Shown here piece after piece: positions 247 to 7,977 of a stretch of 28,425 nucleotides of DNA (the first letter of the stretch is position 1; each line of letters opens with the position of its first letter). Made by a program: the position numbers and the translations under genes. Source of the DNA: a virus (lineage: Duplodnaviria; Heunggongvirae; Uroviricota; Caudoviricetes); the IMG/VR virus record IMGVR_UViG_2619619134_000010. One strand, given 5' to 3'. Below the pieces are notes generated by a model. That model was not told where the DNA came from. It worked only from the letters and a program-made list of their open reading frames with translations, and ran no database searches.

Positions 247-605
247 CTCGTTGTGGAGAATAACAAAAATGGTCATCTGGAGCTTACAGGTGGCCATTCG
301 TGGGACAGTATCCCTGACAGCCTACAAAGCGCAATTGAAGAACGCGAGGCATCGTCTTAACGAGGCACCGAGGCGTCGCATTCTTCAGATGGTTCAACCC
401 TTAAGTTAGCGCTTATGGGTAAAACTCCCCGGTCTTGAGGCCCGCCGTTCGGCGGATGAATGGTTATGTCGCTACGATTTGCCGAAAGTCTGAACCGCTT
501 CTGGCGACCACTCATGATTGCGCTGTTGTGTGTCGTTGTGGTGCTCCGGGGTGTGCTGTGGCTGCGGTGAATAATCCCTTACCGGCCCTGATTGCCGGAG
601 GGTGT

Positions 606-956
606 ATGGCGGCGCTGGGGGTGATGAGCGTGCTGGCTGCCGTGGTATGGGGAATGCACCAGAAGACACAGCGTCTTGAAGACAATAATCATGTGCTTGT
701 GCGTGAACGGGACGAAGCCCGTCTGGTGCTGGCAAACCAGCAACGTACCCTGCAACTCATTTCACAAATCAGTAAGGCGGCCACGAATGAAAAACAGCAG
801 AACATGCAGCACAGCGAGGAACAGCAGAGCATTGTCCGCCGGTCGCTGGCAACGGTGCCTGCGGCCTCTGTTCCTGTGCCTGATGATGTGGCTGACCGGG
901 TGCGGCGGGCCGTCTGTGAAATACGTGCCGGTGAAGCCGGTGCCGATCCCCGCTGA
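606..956 (+). CDS. i-spanin (Rz-like inner-membrane spanin); start uncertain (ATG 606 with GGAGG 4 nt upstream; alternatives GTG 567, ATG 456)
   Basis: N-terminal hydrophobic helix MAALGVMSVLAAVVWG followed by charged coiled-coil-like region; a lipoprotein ORF overlaps in the +1 frame, the classic spanin arrangement. Confidence 0.6.
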   Translation: MAALGVMSVLAAVVWGMHQKTQRLEDNNHVLVRERDEARLVLANQQRTLQLISQISKAATNEKQQNMQHSEEQQSIVRRSLATVPAASVPVPDDVADRVRRAVCEIRAGEAGADPR

Positions 957-1158
957 ATGGCTGGCTGACTGTCTGGTTCCTCCTGTGCCGCAGCCGTTCA
1001 CGTTTGGCGCATCGGTCACTTACAACCTGCAACTGCTGGCGGTGATTAAGAACTGCAACGTGGACAAGGCCAGCATCCGCCGTCTGGAGGCACAGCGACA
1101 GCATGAATTTACTGATATGGCCGGAACGACTGCTGTTCCGGCAGGAAAGACGAAGTAA
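787..1158 (+). CDS. o-spanin (Rz1-like outer-membrane lipoprotein), overlapping the i-spanin in the +1 frame
   Basis: Lipobox LTGC after hydrophobic stretch LFLCLMMW; mature part proline-rich (VKYVPVKPVPIPAEW...PPVPQP) with conserved Cys; AAGG about 8 nt upstream of ATG 787. Starts inside the i-spanin gene and extends past it. Confidence 0.6.
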   Translation: MKNSRTCSTARNSRALSAGRWQRCLRPLFLCLMMWLTGCGGPSVKYVPVKPVPIPAEWLADCLVPPVPQPFTFGASVTYNLQLLAVIKNCNVDKASIRRLEAQRQHEFTDMAGTTAVPAGKTK

Positions 1159-1168
1159 GGAAAAAGGT

Positions 1169-1396
1169 ATGGATGATTCAGATTGTGCTCAGGCAGTCGT
1201 GGAGCGGGCAACAGAACGCGCCCTTTGTGACCGGCTGACACGTAAGTGCCGGGTGGAGGAGACTCCGGGCAGGCGTGTATGCGCAGACTGCGGGGGTGAC
1301 ATTCCGGCCGCCCGTCTGGTTGCCGTGCCGGATGCCATCCGTTGTGTGAACTGCCAGAGCATCATGGAGGCCGGTCATGTGGGTCAGCATCGTTAA
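1169..1396 (+). CDS. TraR/DksA-family C4 zinc-finger protein
   Basis: MDDSDCAQAVVERATERAL...CADCGGDIPAARLVAVPDAIRCVNCQ: CxxC-x17-CxxC zinc finger with the DksA/TraR-like spacing; AAGGAAAAAGG just upstream of ATG 1169. Listed ORF 1103..1396 begins at an upstream alternative start. Confidence 0.7.
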   Translation: MDDSDCAQAVVERATERALCDRLTRKCRVEETPGRRVCADCGGDIPAARLVAVPDAIRCVNCQSIMEAGHVGQHR

Positions 1397-1688
1397 AGAT
1401 TATGTCGTGCCGATCCTGTCGGCAACAGCCACGGCCGGGGGGATCTTTATGGCGCTGATGCGCAAAACCTTTGTCCCCCGCGAGGCCTTTGAAAAACTCT
1501 CCGACCGGGTTGAGCGGGTGGAGAGCCGGATTTCCGGCCTGCCCACGCAGCAGGAGGTGAACAGACTCAATATCGAAATCACCACCCTGCGCGGTGAGCT
1601 TAAGGCCACCAATGCCACCCTGAAATCCGTCTCCCACCAGAACGAACTGCTGCTGGAGCAGGCTGTAAGGAAAAAACACAATGAGTGA
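1377..1688 (+). CDS. Small membrane-anchored coiled-coil protein (Mu lysis-region gp25-like; possible endolysin-release factor)
   Basis: N-terminal hydrophobic segment VVPILSATATAGGIFMAL followed by a heptad-rich region; position between the spanins and the packaging genes. Function assigned only by position and architecture. Confidence 0.55.
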   Translation: MWVSIVKDYVVPILSATATAGGIFMALMRKTFVPREAFEKLSDRVERVESRISGLPTQQEVNRLNIEITTLRGELKATNATLKSVSHQNELLLEQAVRKKHNE

Positions 1689-1971
1689 TTTCATTACTGA
1701 AGATCAGCGTCTTGTCATTCTGCGGTCGCTGGCGGATTACAACGGCGAACTGGGCGAATCCGTGCTTCAGGACTGCCTGGATGATTACGGCCACCGCGTG
1801 TCCCGCGACACCGTTCACACCCACATTGCCTGGCTTGCTGAGCAGGGACTGGTGCGTAAGCGCACGCTTGTTAACGGTTATTTCATCGCTGAACTGACCG
1901 GCCGGGGTCAGGATGTGGCGGAAGGTCGTGCCACTGTTCCGGGTGTGAAGAAACCACGCGCAAGGGGGTAA
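1681..1971 (+). CDS. Conserved Mu-like phage protein (gp26-like), probable winged-helix fold
   Basis: ORF overlaps the upstream stop; 96 aa; sits immediately before the small-terminase-like gene as in Mu-like late regions. Confidence 0.55.
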   Translation: MSDFITEDQRLVILRSLADYNGELGESVLQDCLDDYGHRVSRDTVHTHIAWLAEQGLVRKRTLVNGYFIAELTGRGQDVAEGRATVPGVKKPRARG

Positions 1972-1973
1972 CG

Positions 1974-2555
1974 ATGGATAAGCCGACGCGTGGCCGTGTA
2001 CGCAAGGTGGATTTGCTCCCCGACAGCATCCGTAAGCCGCTGCTGGAAATGCTGCGTGAAAAACGTCTGACGCAGGTCCAGATCCGCGAGGAAATCAACC
2101 GTCTGATCCGTGAAGCAGGTCTGCCGGAAGAGCAGCAGCTCTCACCGGCGGCCATCAGCCGGGAAGCCTCCCGTAATGAGCTGATTGCCCGTAATCTGCG
2201 TGATTTACGCGAGCAGACAAAAGCCATGATGGCCGAACTGGGGGATAAGCCGACCGGTGAAACCACGGCACTGATTCTGGAGATGTCCCGTGCCCTGATG
2301 TACCGCCGTCTGCGTGCCGCCACCGAATCCCTGAACAGCGACAGCGATGTGGATATGCGCCTTATTAAGGACATCCTCCTGTCGGCACAGCGTGCAGAAA
2401 GTGCCGCCGAGCGCAGCATTAAGCGTGAAAAAGAAATCCGGGCCGCATTTGCTGAAGAGATGGCGAATGCGGTCACCGATGAGTTGCGCGGCGTGGATGG
2501 CATGAGCGAGCAGATCGAATTCCGTATCAGGCAGATGCTGCTGGGTAAGGCGTAG
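1974..2555 (+). CDS. Terminase small-subunit-like protein (Mu gp27 family)
   Basis: 193 aa, Arg/Glu-rich helical protein directly upstream of the large terminase gene; start ATG 3 nt after the previous stop. Confidence 0.65.
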   Translation: MDKPTRGRVRKVDLLPDSIRKPLLEMLREKRLTQVQIREEINRLIREAGLPEEQQLSPAAISREASRNELIARNLRDLREQTKAMMAELGDKPTGETTALILEMSRALMYRRLRAATESLNSDSDVDMRLIKDILLSAQRAESAAERSIKREKEIRAAFAEEMANAVTDELRGVDGMSEQIEFRIRQMLLGKA

Positions 2556-2565
2556 GAGGTGAATC

Positions 2566-2814
2566 ATGGCAACAGATAACCGCTCACTGATGAGCAGTGC
2601 CCATCAGAAAGCATTCAGTCTTGCAACACAGTTACCTCCTGAAACCATAAAGGTATGTCGTGAGTTGACTGAACTCAGCATTGCCGGGGAAATATCCCTG
2701 GAACAACTGCATTCGCTGCTGGCAGAGGCTGCCACTGATGAGTTGAGCGGCGTGGACGTGATGACTGAAGAGCTTGAGTCCCGAATCAAAAGCATTCTGA
2801 CAGGTAAAGCATGA
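2566..2814 (+). CDS. Small protein whose C-terminal 26 aa duplicate the C-terminal tail of the upstream small-terminase-like protein
   Basis: C-terminus TDELSGVDVMTEELESRIKSILTGKA versus TDELRGVDGMSEQIEFRIRQMLLGKA in 1974..2555; GGAGG upstream of ATG 2566; stop overlaps the TerL start (ATGA). Confidence 0.6.
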   Translation: MATDNRSLMSSAHQKAFSLATQLPPETIKVCRELTELSIAGEISLEQLHSLLAEAATDELSGVDVMTEELESRIKSILTGKA

Positions 2815-4478
2815 TGAACAAAGCCAGAGAAACGTCGCCTTCACTGATGCAAATGACGCCTCCCCGCAAAATTGATCTGTCCGGTGAAAAAGCCCTGCTG
2901 GGCGTGGATGTGCCGGACAGCCTTGATTTGCCCGGTGATATGCCGGTGTTTCTGGATTATCAGGCCCGCTGGTTTGCAGATGAAAGTCAGGTCTGCATCG
3001 CGGAGAAATCCCGCCGCACCGGTCTTACCTGGGCGGAAGCCGGGCGTAACGTCATTACTGCTGCAAAACCGAAGCGTCGTGGTGGCCGCAATGTGTTTTA
3101 TGTGGGATCAAAGCAGGAGATGGCGCTGGAATATATTTCTGCCTGCGCGCTGTTCTCCCGTGCCTTTAACCAGCTGGCAGATGCTGATGTGTATGAGCAG
3201 ACATTCTGGGATCGGGATAAAAAAGAAGAAATTTTGACCTACATGATCCGCTTTCCGAACAGTGGATTCAAAATTCAGGCATTGTCTTCCCGTCCGTCAA
3301 ACCTGCGCGGCCTTCAGGGGGATGTGGTGATTGATGAAGCCGCGTTCCACGAGTCACTGGATGAGCTTCTCAAGGCGGCAATGGCGCTCACTATGTGGGG
3401 CGCGCGCGTGCGTATTATCTCCACGCATAACGGCGTCGATAATCTGTTTAATCAGTACATTCAGGAAGCCCGCGAGGGGCGCAAGGATTACAGCGTCCAC
3501 CGCATAACCCTGGATGATGCCATTGCGGACGGGCTGTACCGTCGTATCTGTTACGTCACCGATCAGGAATGGTCACCGGAAAGCGAGCAGAAATGGCGTG
3601 ATGATCTCTACAAAAACGCCCCGACCCGTGAGGATGCCGACGAGGAATACGGCTGTATCCCGAAAAAATCCGGCGGTGCCTATATCCCCCACGCGCTTAT
3701 TGAAATGGCGATGATCCGCGACATCCCGATTCTGACGTTTGAAGCCCCGGACAACTTCATCAGCCGTGCCGCATGGCTGCGTGAATCGGAAGTTTTAACC
3801 TGGTGTGAAGAACATTTAAAACCGCTTTTAGAGAAATTAAATCCCCGTTCCCGCTTCAGCTTCGGGGAAGACTTTGCCCGCACCGGTGACCTGTCCTGCT
3901 TTATGCTGCTGGAAATCACCGAATCCCTGGCAAAGCGCGAGGTGTTTCGCGTGGAGCTGCGCAACCTGCCGTATGCCCAGCAGGAACAGGTGATGATGTA
4001 CATCCTGACCCGCGTTCCGGCGCTGGTCGGTGCGGCGTTCGACGCCACCGGTAACGGCGGCTATCTGGCAGAGGCCGCACTGCTGGCCTTTGGCCCGGAT
4101 ATCATCGACTGCGTGATGTTGTCGCCGAAGTGGTACGGCGAGTGGATGCCAAAACTGAAAGCCGAGTTTGAAGATCAGAATATCCTCGTCGCCCGCCATC
4201 AGACCACGCTTGATGATTTGCGCCATGTGAAGGTAGTGAATGGTATCCCGCAAATCGACAAGGGGCGCACGAAGGACCAGAACGCAACGGCTGCGAACGC
4301 CCGCCGCCATGGTGATTTTGCCGTGGCGCTCTGTATGGCAAACCGGGCGTCATACATGGAGGGCTTCATCCTGGATGAATCAGCCTGTCAGGCGCTACCG
4401 GAGCGGTCGCGGGCAATGGAGGGCGGTTATCGTGATGACGATGAGGCATATCATGAATTTGATCGGGGGGGCTGGTAG
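2811..4478 (+). CDS. Terminase large subunit (Mu gp28-like)
   Basis: 555 aa; Walker-B-like VVIDEAAF motif; position and size match Mu-type TerL; translationally coupled to flanking genes. Confidence 0.85.
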   Translation: MMNKARETSPSLMQMTPPRKIDLSGEKALLGVDVPDSLDLPGDMPVFLDYQARWFADESQVCIAEKSRRTGLTWAEAGRNVITAAKPKRRGGRNVFYVGSKQEMALEYISACALFSRAFNQLADADVYEQTFWDRDKKEEILTYMIRFPNSGFKIQALSSRPSNLRGLQGDVVIDEAAFHESLDELLKAAMALTMWGARVRIISTHNGVDNLFNQYIQEAREGRKDYSVHRITLDDAIADGLYRRICYVTDQEWSPESEQKWRDDLYKNAPTREDADEEYGCIPKKSGGAYIPHALIEMAMIRDIPILTFEAPDNFISRAAWLRESEVLTWCEEHLKPLLEKLNPRSRFSFGEDFARTGDLSCFMLLEITESLAKREVFRVELRNLPYAQQEQVMMYILTRVPALVGAAFDATGNGGYLAEAALLAFGPDIIDCVMLSPKWYGEWMPKLKAEFEDQNILVARHQTTLDDLRHVKVVNGIPQIDKGRTKDQNATAANARRHGDFAVALCMANRASYMEGFILDESACQALPERSRAMEGGYRDDDEAYHEFDRGGW

Positions 4479-6067
4479 TGGGACGCATCATTGATACTGA
4501 CGGAAAACCTTTCTCCTTTGACCCGGAGATGCAGAGTGCCGCGCTGGATATTCCGCAGATTGCCAGCCGTTATATTGAACATCCGGCTTCGGGTATCACC
4601 CCGAACCGGGCGGCGCAGTGCCTTCGCGGGGCTGAACGTGGCGATCTGATTGCCCAGTCCGATCTGGCCGCTGATATTGAAGAAAAGGACACCCACCTTT
4701 TTGCGGAGCTGGGCAAGCGACGTCTTGCCATTCAGGGGGTGCCATGGAGTATTGAGCCGCCACCGAACGCCAGCGCGAATGAGAAAAAGGACGCGGAAAT
4801 GCTCGACGAATATCTGCATTCCGCAGACTGGTTTGATGCCATGCTGTTTGACGCCACGGATGCCATCCTGAAGGGCTATTCCTGCATGGAAATTGAGCAC
4901 GGGATGCTCGGTAAAATGCACATCATCCGCGCCATCCGCTGGCGTGACAGCGGGCATTTCTGCCTTAACCCGGATGATTTGAGCGAACTGCGGCTGCGTG
5001 ACGGCAGCCATGCCGGGGTGGCGTTTCAGCCTTTTGGCTGGATAGTGCATCAGTCACGTTCACGGACCGGTTACGGTGGCGCAACGGGGCTTGTCAGGAC
5101 GCTTATCTGGCCGTTCATTTTCAAAAACTATTCCGTGCGCGATCTGGCCGAATTTCTGGAGGTGTACGGACTGCCGATGAAGGTCGGGAAATACCCGTCC
5201 GGGGCAACACCGGAGCAGAAAAGCGCCCTGATGCGGGCGGTGATGGATATCGGGCGACGTACAGGCGGGATCATCCCGGCCGGGATGTCGCTGGAATTTC
5301 AGGCGGCAGCAAACGGGCAGGCCGATCCATTTGAAACCATGATTTCGTGGGGGGAGCGTTCCATCTCCAAAGCAATACTCGGCGGCACGCTGACCACGGA
5401 AGCCGGAGACAAAGGCGCGCGCTCGCTGGGTGAGGTGCATAACGAGGTGCGCCGGGAAATCAGGGATTCTGATTTACGGCAGCTGGCTGCAACCCTGAAC
5501 CGCGATCTGGTGTATCCGCTGTACGCCCTGAACACCACGCACACTATTGATATCCGCCGTCTGCCACGTATCTGCTTCCAGACCAAAGAACCAGGTGATA
5601 TCACCAAAATCACCAGTGCGGTGATGCAGCTCAGTACGGGGATGGATATTTCTGATCCCTGGATACGGGAGCAGACCGGTATTCCGCAGCCCACGCCCGG
5701 TGAAGCCATATTCCGTGTCCGTCAGAGTGGCAATGAACCGGCTCAGACCGACAGGGAAACACCACCGGAAAAACAGGAAAAAACAGAGCAGACGGCGCTG
5801 TCAGCCAGACTGCCGGAAGCGAAAAGCACGCCGCGTGATGAACTGGATGATATGGGGGACGCGGTGCCTGCCCGCCGCTTACAGGAGGCCATCGACCCGG
5901 TACTGGAGCCGGTCATTGATGCCATCAGAACGCGGGGGCTGGCGGATGCGCTGGCAGACCTGCCTGCCCTTTATCGTGAAATGGATGATTCCCGCCTGAT
6001 GACGCTGCTCAGTGATGCCATGTTTGCTGCGGAAATGAAGGGGATGCTGGATGACACAGGGGATTGA
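4478..6067 (+). CDS. Portal protein (Mu gp29-like)
   Basis: 529 aa ORF immediately after TerL, start overlapping the TerL stop; acidic C-terminal region typical of portals. Confidence 0.8.
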   Translation: MGRIIDTDGKPFSFDPEMQSAALDIPQIASRYIEHPASGITPNRAAQCLRGAERGDLIAQSDLAADIEEKDTHLFAELGKRRLAIQGVPWSIEPPPNASANEKKDAEMLDEYLHSADWFDAMLFDATDAILKGYSCMEIEHGMLGKMHIIRAIRWRDSGHFCLNPDDLSELRLRDGSHAGVAFQPFGWIVHQSRSRTGYGGATGLVRTLIWPFIFKNYSVRDLAEFLEVYGLPMKVGKYPSGATPEQKSALMRAVMDIGRRTGGIIPAGMSLEFQAAANGQADPFETMISWGERSISKAILGGTLTTEAGDKGARSLGEVHNEVRREIRDSDLRQLAATLNRDLVYPLYALNTTHTIDIRRLPRICFQTKEPGDITKITSAVMQLSTGMDISDPWIREQTGIPQPTPGEAIFRVRQSGNEPAQTDRETPPEKQEKTEQTALSARLPEAKSTPRDELDDMGDAVPARRLQEAIDPVLEPVIDAIRTRGLADALADLPALYREMDDSRLMTLLSDAMFAAEMKGMLDDTGD

Positions 6068-7382
6068 TTTAGGTTATGCCGCCACGCTTCCCTCAAAAGA
6101 GGCGGTAGCATACTTCCGTGTCAAAGGGGCGCATATCAGCTGGAACTGGTTCGAAACAGCCGCGGATGTTCATGCCCGCTCATTCACGGCAGCAAAAGCG
6201 GCACGCCTGGATGTGGTGACCACGTTACAGGCCGAAGTGCAGCGGGCCATTGATGAGGGAATTTCACAGAAAGCATTTATCCGCACGCTGACGCCACGCC
6301 TGCAAAAGCTGGGATGGTGGGGAAAGCAGATTGTGGTGGACAGCGACGGTAACGCGGAAGAAGTGCAACTGGGCAGTCCCCGTCGTCTGGCGCTGATTTA
6401 CAACGTGAACACCCGTGTGGCTTACAATGCCGGGCGTTACACGCAGATGATGAACAACACGGACACGCATCCGTTCTGGCAGTATGTGGCGGTCATGGAC
6501 AGCCGTACCCGCCCGTCGCATTCCGCCCTTAACGGTCTGGTATTCCGCTATGACGATCCGTTCTGGAAAACACACTACCCACCTAATGGCTGGAACTGCC
6601 GCTGCCGTGTGCGGCCATTGTCTCAGGCTCGTCTGGATGCAATGGGGTTATCCGTTTCATCCGGTGAGGATCATCTCTCCACCCGCAATGTTGAGGCTGG
6701 CGTGGATAAACAGACCGGAGAAGTCAGAGAAATGCCGGTGACCACATATTCAGATGGCACCAGAACCATGACACCGGATGTGGGCTGGTCATATAACCCC
6801 GGCTCGGCAGCGTTCGGCACAGACCAGGCGCTGATCCGCAAACTGATCGAGGTGAAAAGCCCGGCGTTACGGGAAATGGTGGTTCAGGAGATGAACAACA
6901 GCCCGGAGCGGCAGCTGGCGTTCCGCATCTGGGCAAAAAACATCATGCAGACCCGGCGAGGTGGTAACGATATCCGCACGCTGGGCTTTATGACTGAAAG
7001 CATTGCGCAGGCAGTGGAAAGCCGGACGGGAACGCCACCGGCCCGCCTGCTGGCGATGAGCGGTAAAAATGTGCTCCATGCAGACAGTGTGAAACATCAG
7101 AATGACGGCATCGCCCTGATGCCAGAGGACTTCGGGCGCTTACCGGCAATGCTGGCAAAGCCAAAAGCGGTGCTGTGGGACAAACGGCACAAAAATCTGA
7201 TGTATATCGTGGAAAATAAGGATGGCAGTGTGCAGATTGCCGTTAATGCACCGTACAGTCTGAAACGTCAGCCCGACAAACTGGATGTGATTGTGAATGC
7301 TTACCGGGTTATCAATATGGATAAGCTGAAATCGGATATCCGGGGCGGAATGCTTGAGGTGCTGGAAGGACAAATTGATTAA
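6051..7382 (+). CDS. Head morphogenesis protein (Mu F / gp30-like)
   Basis: 443 aa ORF overlapping the portal 3' end; conserved position after the portal in Mu-like phages. Confidence 0.75.
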   Translation: MTQGIDLGYAATLPSKEAVAYFRVKGAHISWNWFETAADVHARSFTAAKAARLDVVTTLQAEVQRAIDEGISQKAFIRTLTPRLQKLGWWGKQIVVDSDGNAEEVQLGSPRRLALIYNVNTRVAYNAGRYTQMMNNTDTHPFWQYVAVMDSRTRPSHSALNGLVFRYDDPFWKTHYPPNGWNCRCRVRPLSQARLDAMGLSVSSGEDHLSTRNVEAGVDKQTGEVREMPVTTYSDGTRTMTPDVGWSYNPGSAAFGTDQALIRKLIEVKSPALREMVVQEMNNSPERQLAFRIWAKNIMQTRRGGNDIRTLGFMTESIAQAVESRTGTPPARLLAMSGKNVLHADSVKHQNDGIALMPEDFGRLPAMLAKPKAVLWDKRHKNLMYIVENKDGSVQIAVNAPYSLKRQPDKLDVIVNAYRVINMDKLKSDIRGGMLEVLEGQID

Positions 7383-7503: not shown

Positions 7504-7977
7504 ATGTCATCCATTGATGCCGCTGTCGTTGTTGACGTTACGCGTCTCCAGCGGGTGTTTGCCCGGCTTCAGTTTGTGGGCGGCGGAAAAGACCTGGCCC
7601 GCAGTGTGGCGGAGAGTCTTCTGTCATCGTCAGAAATGGCGTTTGAACAGGAAAAAGAGCCGGACGGCGAACGCTGGCATGACTGGTCAGATCCTTACCG
7701 CAAGTGGCGTACCCGTAAGGGATACACGCCCGGCAAAATCCTGACACTGAACGGCGATCTGGCCCGCCGCCTGACCACGGATTATGGCGATACCTGGGCG
7801 CTGATTGGATCAAATGAACCTTATGCGGCCATTCATCAGTGGGGTGGCCTGCCTGGTATGCCACCGGGACCGGCGGCCATTGGCGCACGTCCGTATATGG
7901 GCTTTGATCAGGTGGCAGAACAGGAGATCATGGACGAAATCAGAAAACGCTTTAAAAAGGCCACAGAAACGCCGTAA
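7504..7977 (+). CDS. Virion morphogenesis protein (Mu G-like)
   Basis: 157 aa; GGAGG 5 nt upstream of ATG; position between F-like and I-like genes. Confidence 0.7.
   Translation: MSSIDAAVVVDVTRLQRVFARLQFVGGGKDLARSVAESLLSSSEMAFEQEKEPDGERWHDWSDPYRKWRTRKGYTPGKILTLNGDLARRLTTDYGDTWALIGSNEPYAAIHQWGGLPGMPPGPAAIGARPYMGFDQVAEQEIMDEIRKRFKKATETP

Follow-up and report, generated by a model that had tools for sequence, protein, structure and literature searches.

A putative chimeric accessory gene carrying a second copy of the gp27 tail between the terminase genes of an Escherichia coli Mu-like prophage

Why should a small ORF lying between the genes for the two terminase subunits end in the same residues as the protein encoded just upstream? 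The question is raised by an 82-codon ORF (ORF82) that separates the gene for the small terminase-like protein gp27 from that for the terminase large subunit (TerL) in an Escherichia coli Mu-like prophage. The original prediction, made from the nucleotide sequence alone, was that ORF82 carries a copy of the gp27 C-terminal tail behind an unrelated N-terminal part, and that it might compete for or modulate TerL, or be a partial gene duplication. The window analyzed here is the whole 28,425-nucleotide stretch of IMG/VR record IMGVR_UViG_2619619134_000010 and carries the late region of the prophage, whose endolysin gene contains an IS; an almost identical prophage (99.9%) is present in E. coli AF39 (NZ_OZ547136), where RefSeq lists ORF82 as the hypothetical protein WP_000179787.1. 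The features that bear on the question are as follows.

435-1158, plus strand: spanin-like genes
1103-1396, plus strand: TraR/DksA zinc-finger protein
1377-1688, plus strand: DUF2730 protein
1681-1971, plus strand: winged-helix protein
1974-2555, plus strand: gp27, Mu gene-D-type small terminase-like protein, 193 amino acids (PF11985, phrog_426, Mu_27)
2460-2555, plus strand: gp27 C-terminal tail, codons 163-193 and TAG, left copy of the repeat, the rare 'X' allele ...MSEQIEFRIRQMLLGKA
2554-2560, plus strand: Shine-Dalgarno AGGAGGT of ORF82, 5 nt before the ATG, read from the sequence
2566-2814, plus strand: ORF82, 82 amino acids, ATG start
2566-2718, plus strand: ORF82 N-module, codons 1-51, slot-gene part, predicted three-helix bundle (hhalign, BLASTP, AF2)
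2719-2814, plus strand: ORF82 tail, codons 52-82 and TGA, right copy of the gp27 tail, ...LAEAATDELSGVDVMTEELESRIKSILTGKA
2811-4478, plus strand: TerL, 555 amino acids (phrog_2, terminase large subunit, E = 1e-42)
2811-2870, plus strand: first ~17-20 codons of TerL, within the variable cassette; N-terminal alleles co-vary with the adjacent tail allele
4478-6067, plus strand: portal
6051-7382, plus strand: gpF
7504-7977, plus strand: gpG

The order TraR/DksA zinc-finger protein, DUF2730 protein, winged-helix protein, gp27, TerL, and portal is that of Mu genes 24-29. The assignment of gp27 is straightforward: PF11985 (Phage_Mu_Gp27) matches it over its whole length (E = 3e-33; 116 bits against a cut-off of 28), phrog_426, 'terminase small subunit', matches it with E = 9e-55, and it is 57% identical to Mu_27. 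With a profile score above the gathering threshold and a position immediately 5' of TerL in a Mu-type late operon, gp27 belongs to the PF11985 family. In the GenBank record of Mu, gene D (Mu_27) is listed as terminase small subunit and gene E (Mu_28) as terminase large subunit; a PDB sequence search with the gp27 profile gave nothing below E = 0.2, and thus no solved relative by sequence, and a limited literature search found nothing relevant on the biochemistry of the Mu gp27/gp28 terminase.

Pairwise alignment of the two proteins bore out the claimed resemblance. BLASTP gave a single significant segment, gp27 residues 163-193 against ORF82 residues 52-82 (E = 3e-10), in which 18/31 residues were identical and 24/31 positive, without gaps; the rest of the two proteins gave no alignment. 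The length originally proposed for the common tail, 26 residues, was slightly short, as the actual stretch comprises 31. An independent check came from phrog_30922, a PHROG profile made from ORF82-like proteins: gp27 residues 162-193 match its positions 51-82 (E = 6e-8), and ORF82 itself matches positions 2-82 of 82 (E = 6.9e-52) and so belongs to this family of unassigned function. At the DNA level, the two 96-nt copies of the tail are identical at 63/96 positions; an exact-seed repeat at 2485-2499 and 2744-2758 places them in register with a spacing of 259 nt.

The tail is a conserved element of the gp27 family. The motif TDELRG-x-DGMSE-x-LE-x-RI-x-x-[VI]LLGKA is common to 120 listed E. coli and Salmonella gp27 homologues, Mu gp27 ends in ...EELRGQDGISEELEQRIRDVLLGKA, and more distant relatives end in ...ILGIA. 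ORF82 shows this conserved family motif: its last 31 residues carry DEL-x-G-x-D-x-M-[ST]-E-x-L-E-x-R-I-x-x-[IV]-L-x-G-K-A, and of the 12 positions at which gp27 tails do not vary, 10 are kept, including the hydrophobic face of the terminal helix. The two that are not are represented by the changes G176V and S178T, and a third change, R172S, affects a nearly invariant position. By a hand count, the ORF82 tail has about 0.21 changes per conserved site versus 0.30 per variable site, i.e., there is no enrichment of changes at positions that vary in gp27, a result that favors none of the explanations considered below. However, the likeness to gp27 ends with the tail. ORF82 lacks everything equivalent to gp27 residues 1-162, and PF11985, whose full-length profile spans ~173 positions, does not match it even at E <= 1; for both reasons, ORF82 is not a terminase subunit.

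The remainder of ORF82 has relatives of its own. A profile-profile comparison (hhalign) aligned residues 4-51 of the ORF82 family with residues 6-53 of a 65-amino acid protein family of Salmonella and Citrobacter (probability 75%, E = 2.5e-5), and BLASTP aligned ORF82 residues 4-46 with a 65-amino acid protein at 35% identity (E = 4e-7). Homology to that family stops at ORF82 residue 51, and similarity to gp27 starts at residue 52. The 65-amino acid ORF occupies the same gp27|TerL slot in Citrobacter braakii and in many Salmonella enterica Mu-like prophages, where it overlaps the TerL start by 4 nt; its location was confirmed in three loci (L004, L044, and L045). The 65-amino acid proteins terminate in their own ...ALSVLEDKVKKV (...LEDKVKKV) and have no gp27 tail. 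ORF82 therefore shares with the family the N-terminal ~48 residues and the slot, but not the C-terminus or the 65-residue length, since from residue 52 onward it has the gp27 tail. P0012, another slot protein, resembles ORF82 in the same ways (slot, orientation, N-terminal ~48 residues, and an overlap with the start of TerL) and differs from it in the same way: it ends in a short C-terminus of its own (...SSRRGKT) and lacks the gp27 tail. The slot proteins of both types are basic, with pI values of 9-10, as opposed to 4.7 for the acidic ORF82. The GC content of the N-module is 47.7%, lower than those of gp27 (58.1%) and TerL (55.5%), which argues for a foreign origin of the N-module. These alignments show ORF82 to be a chimera of a slot-gene part of ~51 codons and the last 31 codons of a gp27 allele; within the family of small slot proteins, it is an offshoot that bears a tail.

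The slot itself is highly variable. The gp27 stop overlaps the TerL start in most of the loci read, and a minority hold one of several small cassettes. P0012, at 67 amino acids, is found in L034-L037, where the upstream gp27 tail, the Shine-Dalgarno sequence, and the first ~34 residues are identical to those of the ORF82 locus, the C-terminus is different, and a 120-nt spacer and a different TerL N-terminus follow. The leader AGGAGGTGAATCATGGCAACAG is common to the ORF82 locus, the P0012 cassette of L034, and a remnant in L050; the latter retains only the Shine-Dalgarno sequence and ATGGCAACAGA, a 9-codon remnant, before the TerL allele seen with P0012. An 87-amino acid ORF in L069 has only its first eight codons in common with the 65-amino acid family, and prophages of Vibrio, Enterovibrio, and Plesiomonas contain unrelated ORFs of 50-68 amino acids in the slot. 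The slot is thus hypervariable, with cassettes swapped and boundaries kept.

ORF82 itself is patchily distributed. The 1101-nt gp27-TerL region was found in 230 of 5426 complete E. coli genomes, and DNA specific to ORF82 (2556-2715) in 25 of these about 230, leaving ~89% of close relatives without the gene. In a spread sample of prophages lacking ORF82, the region was exactly 259 nt shorter, and in all four of the shorter loci examined, the gp27 stop overlaps the TerL start by 1 nt. ORF82 is absent from Mu, D108, and SfMu; in Mu, a 7-nt gap without an ORF separates the gp27 and TerL genes. A tblastn search of ORF82 against 50,697 phage records returned gp27 tails only, and no isolated phage with ORF82; a profile search run exhaustively over 1.84 billion protein representatives returned four clusters, all of them close relatives or truncations; and ORF82 had no match in Pfam. 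Three IMG/VR matches (L086-L088; 41% identity to ORF82 residues 34-81) lie inside a 492-amino acid protein of a high-GC phage and were rejected as chance matches between acidic, alanine-rich sequences. A gene of this kind is not universal among Mu-like phages, and its tail similarity is significant, so the original prediction is refuted on neither count. ORF82 is an accessory, lineage-restricted gene and is probably dispensable for the phage.

In these respects, ORF82 behaves like a moron or a mosaic-joint gene, an idea that is reportedly the concept of Hendrix and Juhala. It lies between genes that are adjacent in relatives, is patchily distributed, has a lower GC content, and sits in a slot that holds varied cassettes. 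It differs from a moron in lacking a promoter and terminator of its own, in being part of the late operon and translationally linked to TerL, and in having a 3' third that duplicates the end of the upstream gene. Pseudomonas Mu-like phages contain anti-CRISPR loci in the head-gene operon, between G and the protease/scaffold genes. Those loci are similar in being hypervariable small accessory ORFs between conserved Mu-like late genes, but they occupy a different slot, have no sequence or fold similarity to ORF82, and nothing in ORF82 indicates an anti-defense role.

A fusion of gp27 and ORF82 by frameshifting or read-through was ruled out, as ORF82 lies in frame +1, which a TGA at 2560-2562 closes just 5' of the ATG. 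No sigma-70-like promoter, plus-strand terminator, or RNA element was found between gp27 and TerL, and ORF82 would therefore be read from the late transcript; there are also no inverted repeats around it. The TGA of ORF82 overlaps the ATG of TerL (ATGA). All 15 complete loci read, representing 10 distinct alleles with either an ATG or a GTG start, keep exactly 82 codons, although the database proteins P0003, P0004, P0010, and P0011 are shorter or altered variants of ORF82. ORF82 is probably translated, because it has an AGGAGGT site, overlaps the TerL start, and keeps its 82 codons. Late transcription would then yield ORF82 protein from the strong Shine-Dalgarno sequence, and translation of ORF82 would deliver ribosomes to the TerL start.

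The AlphaFold2 (AF2) model of ORF82 (pLDDT 69.7) contains helices at residues 3-22, 25-39, and 45-60 (pLDDT 71-84), beyond which residues 60-67 form a disordered loop and residues 68-79 a short helix at the C-terminus; the likely fold is a small bundle of helices whose terminal helix is flexible. The gp27 model was of low confidence (pLDDT 57.6; shallow alignment) and was used for its secondary-structure pattern only. Within residues 1-162, it shows two short N-terminal helices and then long helices, the last of which runs to residue 171 and is followed by a loop and a helix at 179-189. The terminal pattern of helix end, loop, and short helix is the same in the two models, both being of low confidence in this region. 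Fold searches with the ORF82 model against BFVD and the PDB gave no meaningful match (best E values of 0.9 and 1.7, respectively).

Selective constraint was assessed from mean pN/pS values across seven genomes. These were 0.015 for the gp27 core, 0.0 for the gp27 tail (pS 0.21), in which no nonsynonymous change was found among the seven loci, and 0.07 for the TerL core (amino acids 21-360), versus 0.52 for the ORF82 N-module, 0.39 for the ORF82 tail, and 1.1 for TerL residues 1-20. Polymorphism within ORF82 amounts to 15 synonymous and 30 nonsynonymous variants, which cannot be distinguished from neutrality (p = 0.09). When the ORF82 tail is compared with the closest gp27 tail, dN/dS is 0.31, and nonsynonymous changes are under-represented (Fisher p = 0.04). 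Constraint on ORF82 is weak, and much weaker than that on the genuine gp27 tail, but perhaps non-zero, and its tail may still have some function.

The second tail is not simply a copy of the one next to it. The resident gp27 tail ends in ...IEFRIRQMLLGKA and the ORF82 tail in ...LESRIKSILTGKA. The resident stretch IEFRIRQML is found in none (0/44) of the distinct tail variants represented by the 120 listed gp27 homologues, and among the loci read, a tail of the resident type is confined to those in which gp27 and TerL do not overlap. The ORF82 tail is of a common-looking type; its best match is the gp27 tail of those E. coli prophages that are without ORF82 (22/31 amino acids and 75/96 nt identical, versus 18/31 and 63/96 with the resident tail); the ~50 nt of TerL that follow the ORF82 tail show the same affinity. 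In terms of synonymous divergence, the resident gp27 tail differs from that of prophages without ORF82 with a pS of 0.71, versus 0.19 for the gp27 core; for the ORF82 tail, pS is 0.42 with respect to the tail of prophages without ORF82 and 0.66 with respect to the resident tail. The divergence of the tails relative to the gp27 core supports a mosaic joint inside the tail, and the pattern as a whole identifies the second tail as an allele from another lineage and not a fresh tandem duplicate. The second tail, together with the ~17 codons that open TerL behind it, belongs to another allele lineage than the resident gp27 tail. The suggestion of a partial gene duplication is consequently correct in that there is a second gp27 tail, but this is not a recent copy of the resident one (pS 0.66), and an in-frame fusion joins it to the first ~51 codons of a separate slot gene.

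The simplest history would be one illegitimate, in-frame crossover between codon ~51 of the slot gene and codon ~163 of gp27 in two phages, joining a phage that bore a slot gene to the gp27 3' end of a phage without one. Such a crossover would have left TerL with its native upstream ~90 nt, including the Shine-Dalgarno-like stretch GGTAAAGC and the stop/start overlap. The reverse course, in which ORF82 is ancestral, the 259-nt-shorter form arose by homologous deletion between the tail repeats, and an old gene is being lost, seems to us unlikely. The size of the indel is indeed the repeat spacing, 259 nt, and the gp27 tail of the shorter form looks like a hybrid, its 5' half being nearer to the resident tail (14/15 nt in the first 15-nt block and 12/15 in the second) and its 3' half nearer to the ORF82 tail (13/15, 13/15, and 11/15). 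That 3' half, however, is only ~79% identical to that of ORF82, whereas the flanks are 90-97% identical, and any deletion between the tail repeats is therefore not recent; in addition, Mu has a 7-nt gap and no ORF, most of the distant relatives have the overlapping arrangement, and the low GC content of the N-module points to acquisition. An ancestral ORF82 concerns history only and is compatible with the explanation of ORF82 given below; it is not favored, although events may have run in either direction, by insertion or fusion or by deletion between the two repeats.

What, then, would ORF82 do? On balance, we judge it likely that ORF82 is a chimeric accessory gene in the slot, with a tail that is mainly a relic of recombination and not a dedicated regulator of TerL, because its slot homologues are tail-less and the gene is probably dispensable and only weakly constrained; the tail would have been kept for the TerL translation-initiation context carried in its DNA. 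The originally suggested competition with gp27 is mechanistically reasonable by analogy, because the TerS C-terminal region binds TerL in phage lambda, and TerS residues 140-162 bind the TerL N-terminus in P22 (review PMC9611059). By that analogy, the ORF82 tail would bind the partner of the gp27 tail, putatively the TerL N-terminus, and so compete with gp27, time the assembly of the terminase, or tether the N-module to the packaging motor. It is ORF82, not gp27, that carries the tail allele adjoining the N-terminal allele of this TerL, and the two alleles are inherited together; however, co-inheritance is a trivial consequence of their being adjacent on the DNA. The motif is conserved from Mu to these prophages, and strictly so locally, and the ORF82 tail keeps most of the invariant positions (10/12) and has a modeled ending like that of gp27, albeit at low confidence; against this stand the three substitutions G176V, S178T, and R172S, two at invariant positions and one at a nearly invariant position, and a constraint far weaker than that on the gp27 tail. 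Similarly, the ORF is intact in 15/15 complete loci with pN/pS below 1, but the database alleles P0003 and P0004 have in-frame deletions at the junction, homologues in the gp27|TerL slot do without the tail, and the gene is absent from Mu as well as from ~89% of close relatives. A role for the tail as decoy or adaptor thus strikes us as very unlikely. Equally unlikely is the wider proposition that a co-inherited, possibly co-adapted interaction module is formed by the final ~13 codons of the gp27 tail with the opening ~17 of TerL, that in phages bearing ORF82 the tail half of this module lies on ORF82 while the small terminase has a heterologous tail allele, and that ORF82 would thus be a natural decoy or adaptor.

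A more prosaic alternative dispenses with the protein altogether: the frame would stay open for the sole purpose of having ribosomes terminate at the start of TerL (translational coupling), the amino acid sequence being neutral. The ORF82 stop overlaps the TerL start (ATGA), an arrangement that relatives without ORF82 show with the gp27 stop. The only Shine-Dalgarno-like stretch of TerL is a weak AGGT inside the last ORF82 codons (GGT AAA GCA), the first 15 residues of ORF82 differ widely among alleles, and the polymorphism ratio is not significantly non-neutral (p = 0.09). Neutrality, however, predicts a pN/pS of 1 and not the 0.4-0.5 found, and the comparison of the tail with its closest relative gave a Fisher p of 0.04. 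Furthermore, the N-module is 31-35% identical between E. coli and Salmonella/Citrobacter, a conservation that implies long-term selection on that protein, and L034 and L073 show TerL to be expressible after an untranslated spacer of 43-120 nt. A translated spacer of neutral sequence is accordingly improbable, and the mosaic accessory gene with a largely relict tail is the reading that we prefer.

Small accessory proteins that act on terminases have precedents. SaPI Ppi and PICI Rpp are satellite-encoded proteins that target the TerS of the helper phage and redirect or interfere with packaging. Like ORF82, were it a decoy, they are small accessory proteins that bind a terminase subunit; they differ in being encoded by satellites, in targeting TerS, and in not being built from a copied TerS tail. 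If ORF82 did act as a decoy, it would represent a new mode of packaging regulation, in which a phage-encoded regulator derives from a copied subunit-interface peptide, and it would bind the TerL N-terminus and tune packaging or couple another activity to packaging; if not, the tail is ordinary mosaic-joint debris.

Recombination events of this kind are well known in phage genomics; within a limited literature search, neither the chimeric make-up of ORF82 nor the cassette slot appears to have been described before. On the preferred reading of a mosaic accessory gene, ORF82 would be a clean, datable case of a new small protein created by phage mosaicism, by the in-frame fusion of an accessory gene to the putative interface peptide of an essential neighbor, and the terS|terL junction of Mu-like prophages would be a hot spot of cassette exchange. 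The natural alleles of the tail and of the TerL N-terminus, together with a protein that carries the tail only, could serve as reagents for mapping the uncharacterized Mu-type TerS-TerL interface. The variable cassette at this locus is made up of the tail's end and the ~17 codons with which TerL begins.

Comparison of the resident tail of gp27, the small terminase-like protein, in the window (2460-2555) with that of L001 (2336-2431), a relative of the type without ORF82, places a mosaic breakpoint inside the tail. Synonymous divergence between the two is 0.71 for the tail alleles vs. 0.19 for the remainder of gp27, where there are no amino acid changes at all. Across TerL, variation is also uneven: residues 1 to ~17-20 (window 2811-2870) are hypervariable, with a pN/pS of 1.1 vs. 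0.07 in the core. In the window and the loci compared, these N-terminal variants are discrete alleles, each paired with an allele of the preceding tail. TerL (window 2811-4478) had no match in Pfam-A, even at E ≤ 1; only PHROG profiles recognize the TerL of this prophage type (phrog_2, E = 1e-42).

The second copy of the tail, carried by ORF82, varies as well. Several ORF82 alleles (L040-L042, L046, L048, L052, and L053) have ELEFRIK where that of the window has ELESRIK, and some start with GTG instead of ATG. The Phe of the ELEFRIK alleles is the same Phe found in the resident gp27 tail (IEFRIR); this common residue may reflect gene conversion between the tail copies.

Other small cassettes occupy the slot between gp27 and TerL in relatives:

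L069, 3088-3351: an 87-amino acid ORF that has only its first eight codons in common with the Salmonella 65-amino acid family
L050, 3083-3115: a nine-codon remnant of the ORF82 leader
L027/L028, 3582-3788: a 68-amino acid protein matching phrog_1761
L033, 3564-3740: a short hydrophobic ORF
L030, 3552-3704: a short hydrophobic ORF

The Citrobacter 65-amino acid ORF (L004, 3590-3787) matches phrog_220, "minor head protein and DNA pilot" (E = 2.5e-5), over positions 917-974 of the 1338 in the profile.

The left end of the window is part of an IS element:

1-416: 3' end of an IS element, in which ORF 34-246 matches the DDE transposase family PF01609 (E = 4e-10)

Homology to the intact prophage of E. 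coli strain AF39 begins only at position 417, inside the AF39 lysozyme gene; the endolysin gene is thus truncated in the window, and this copy of the prophage is, for that reason, probably defective.

One database protein, P0014 (291 amino acids, from a single Logan contig), was called as a fusion of the winged-helix gp26-like protein and gp27, probably through a frameshift or an assembly error.
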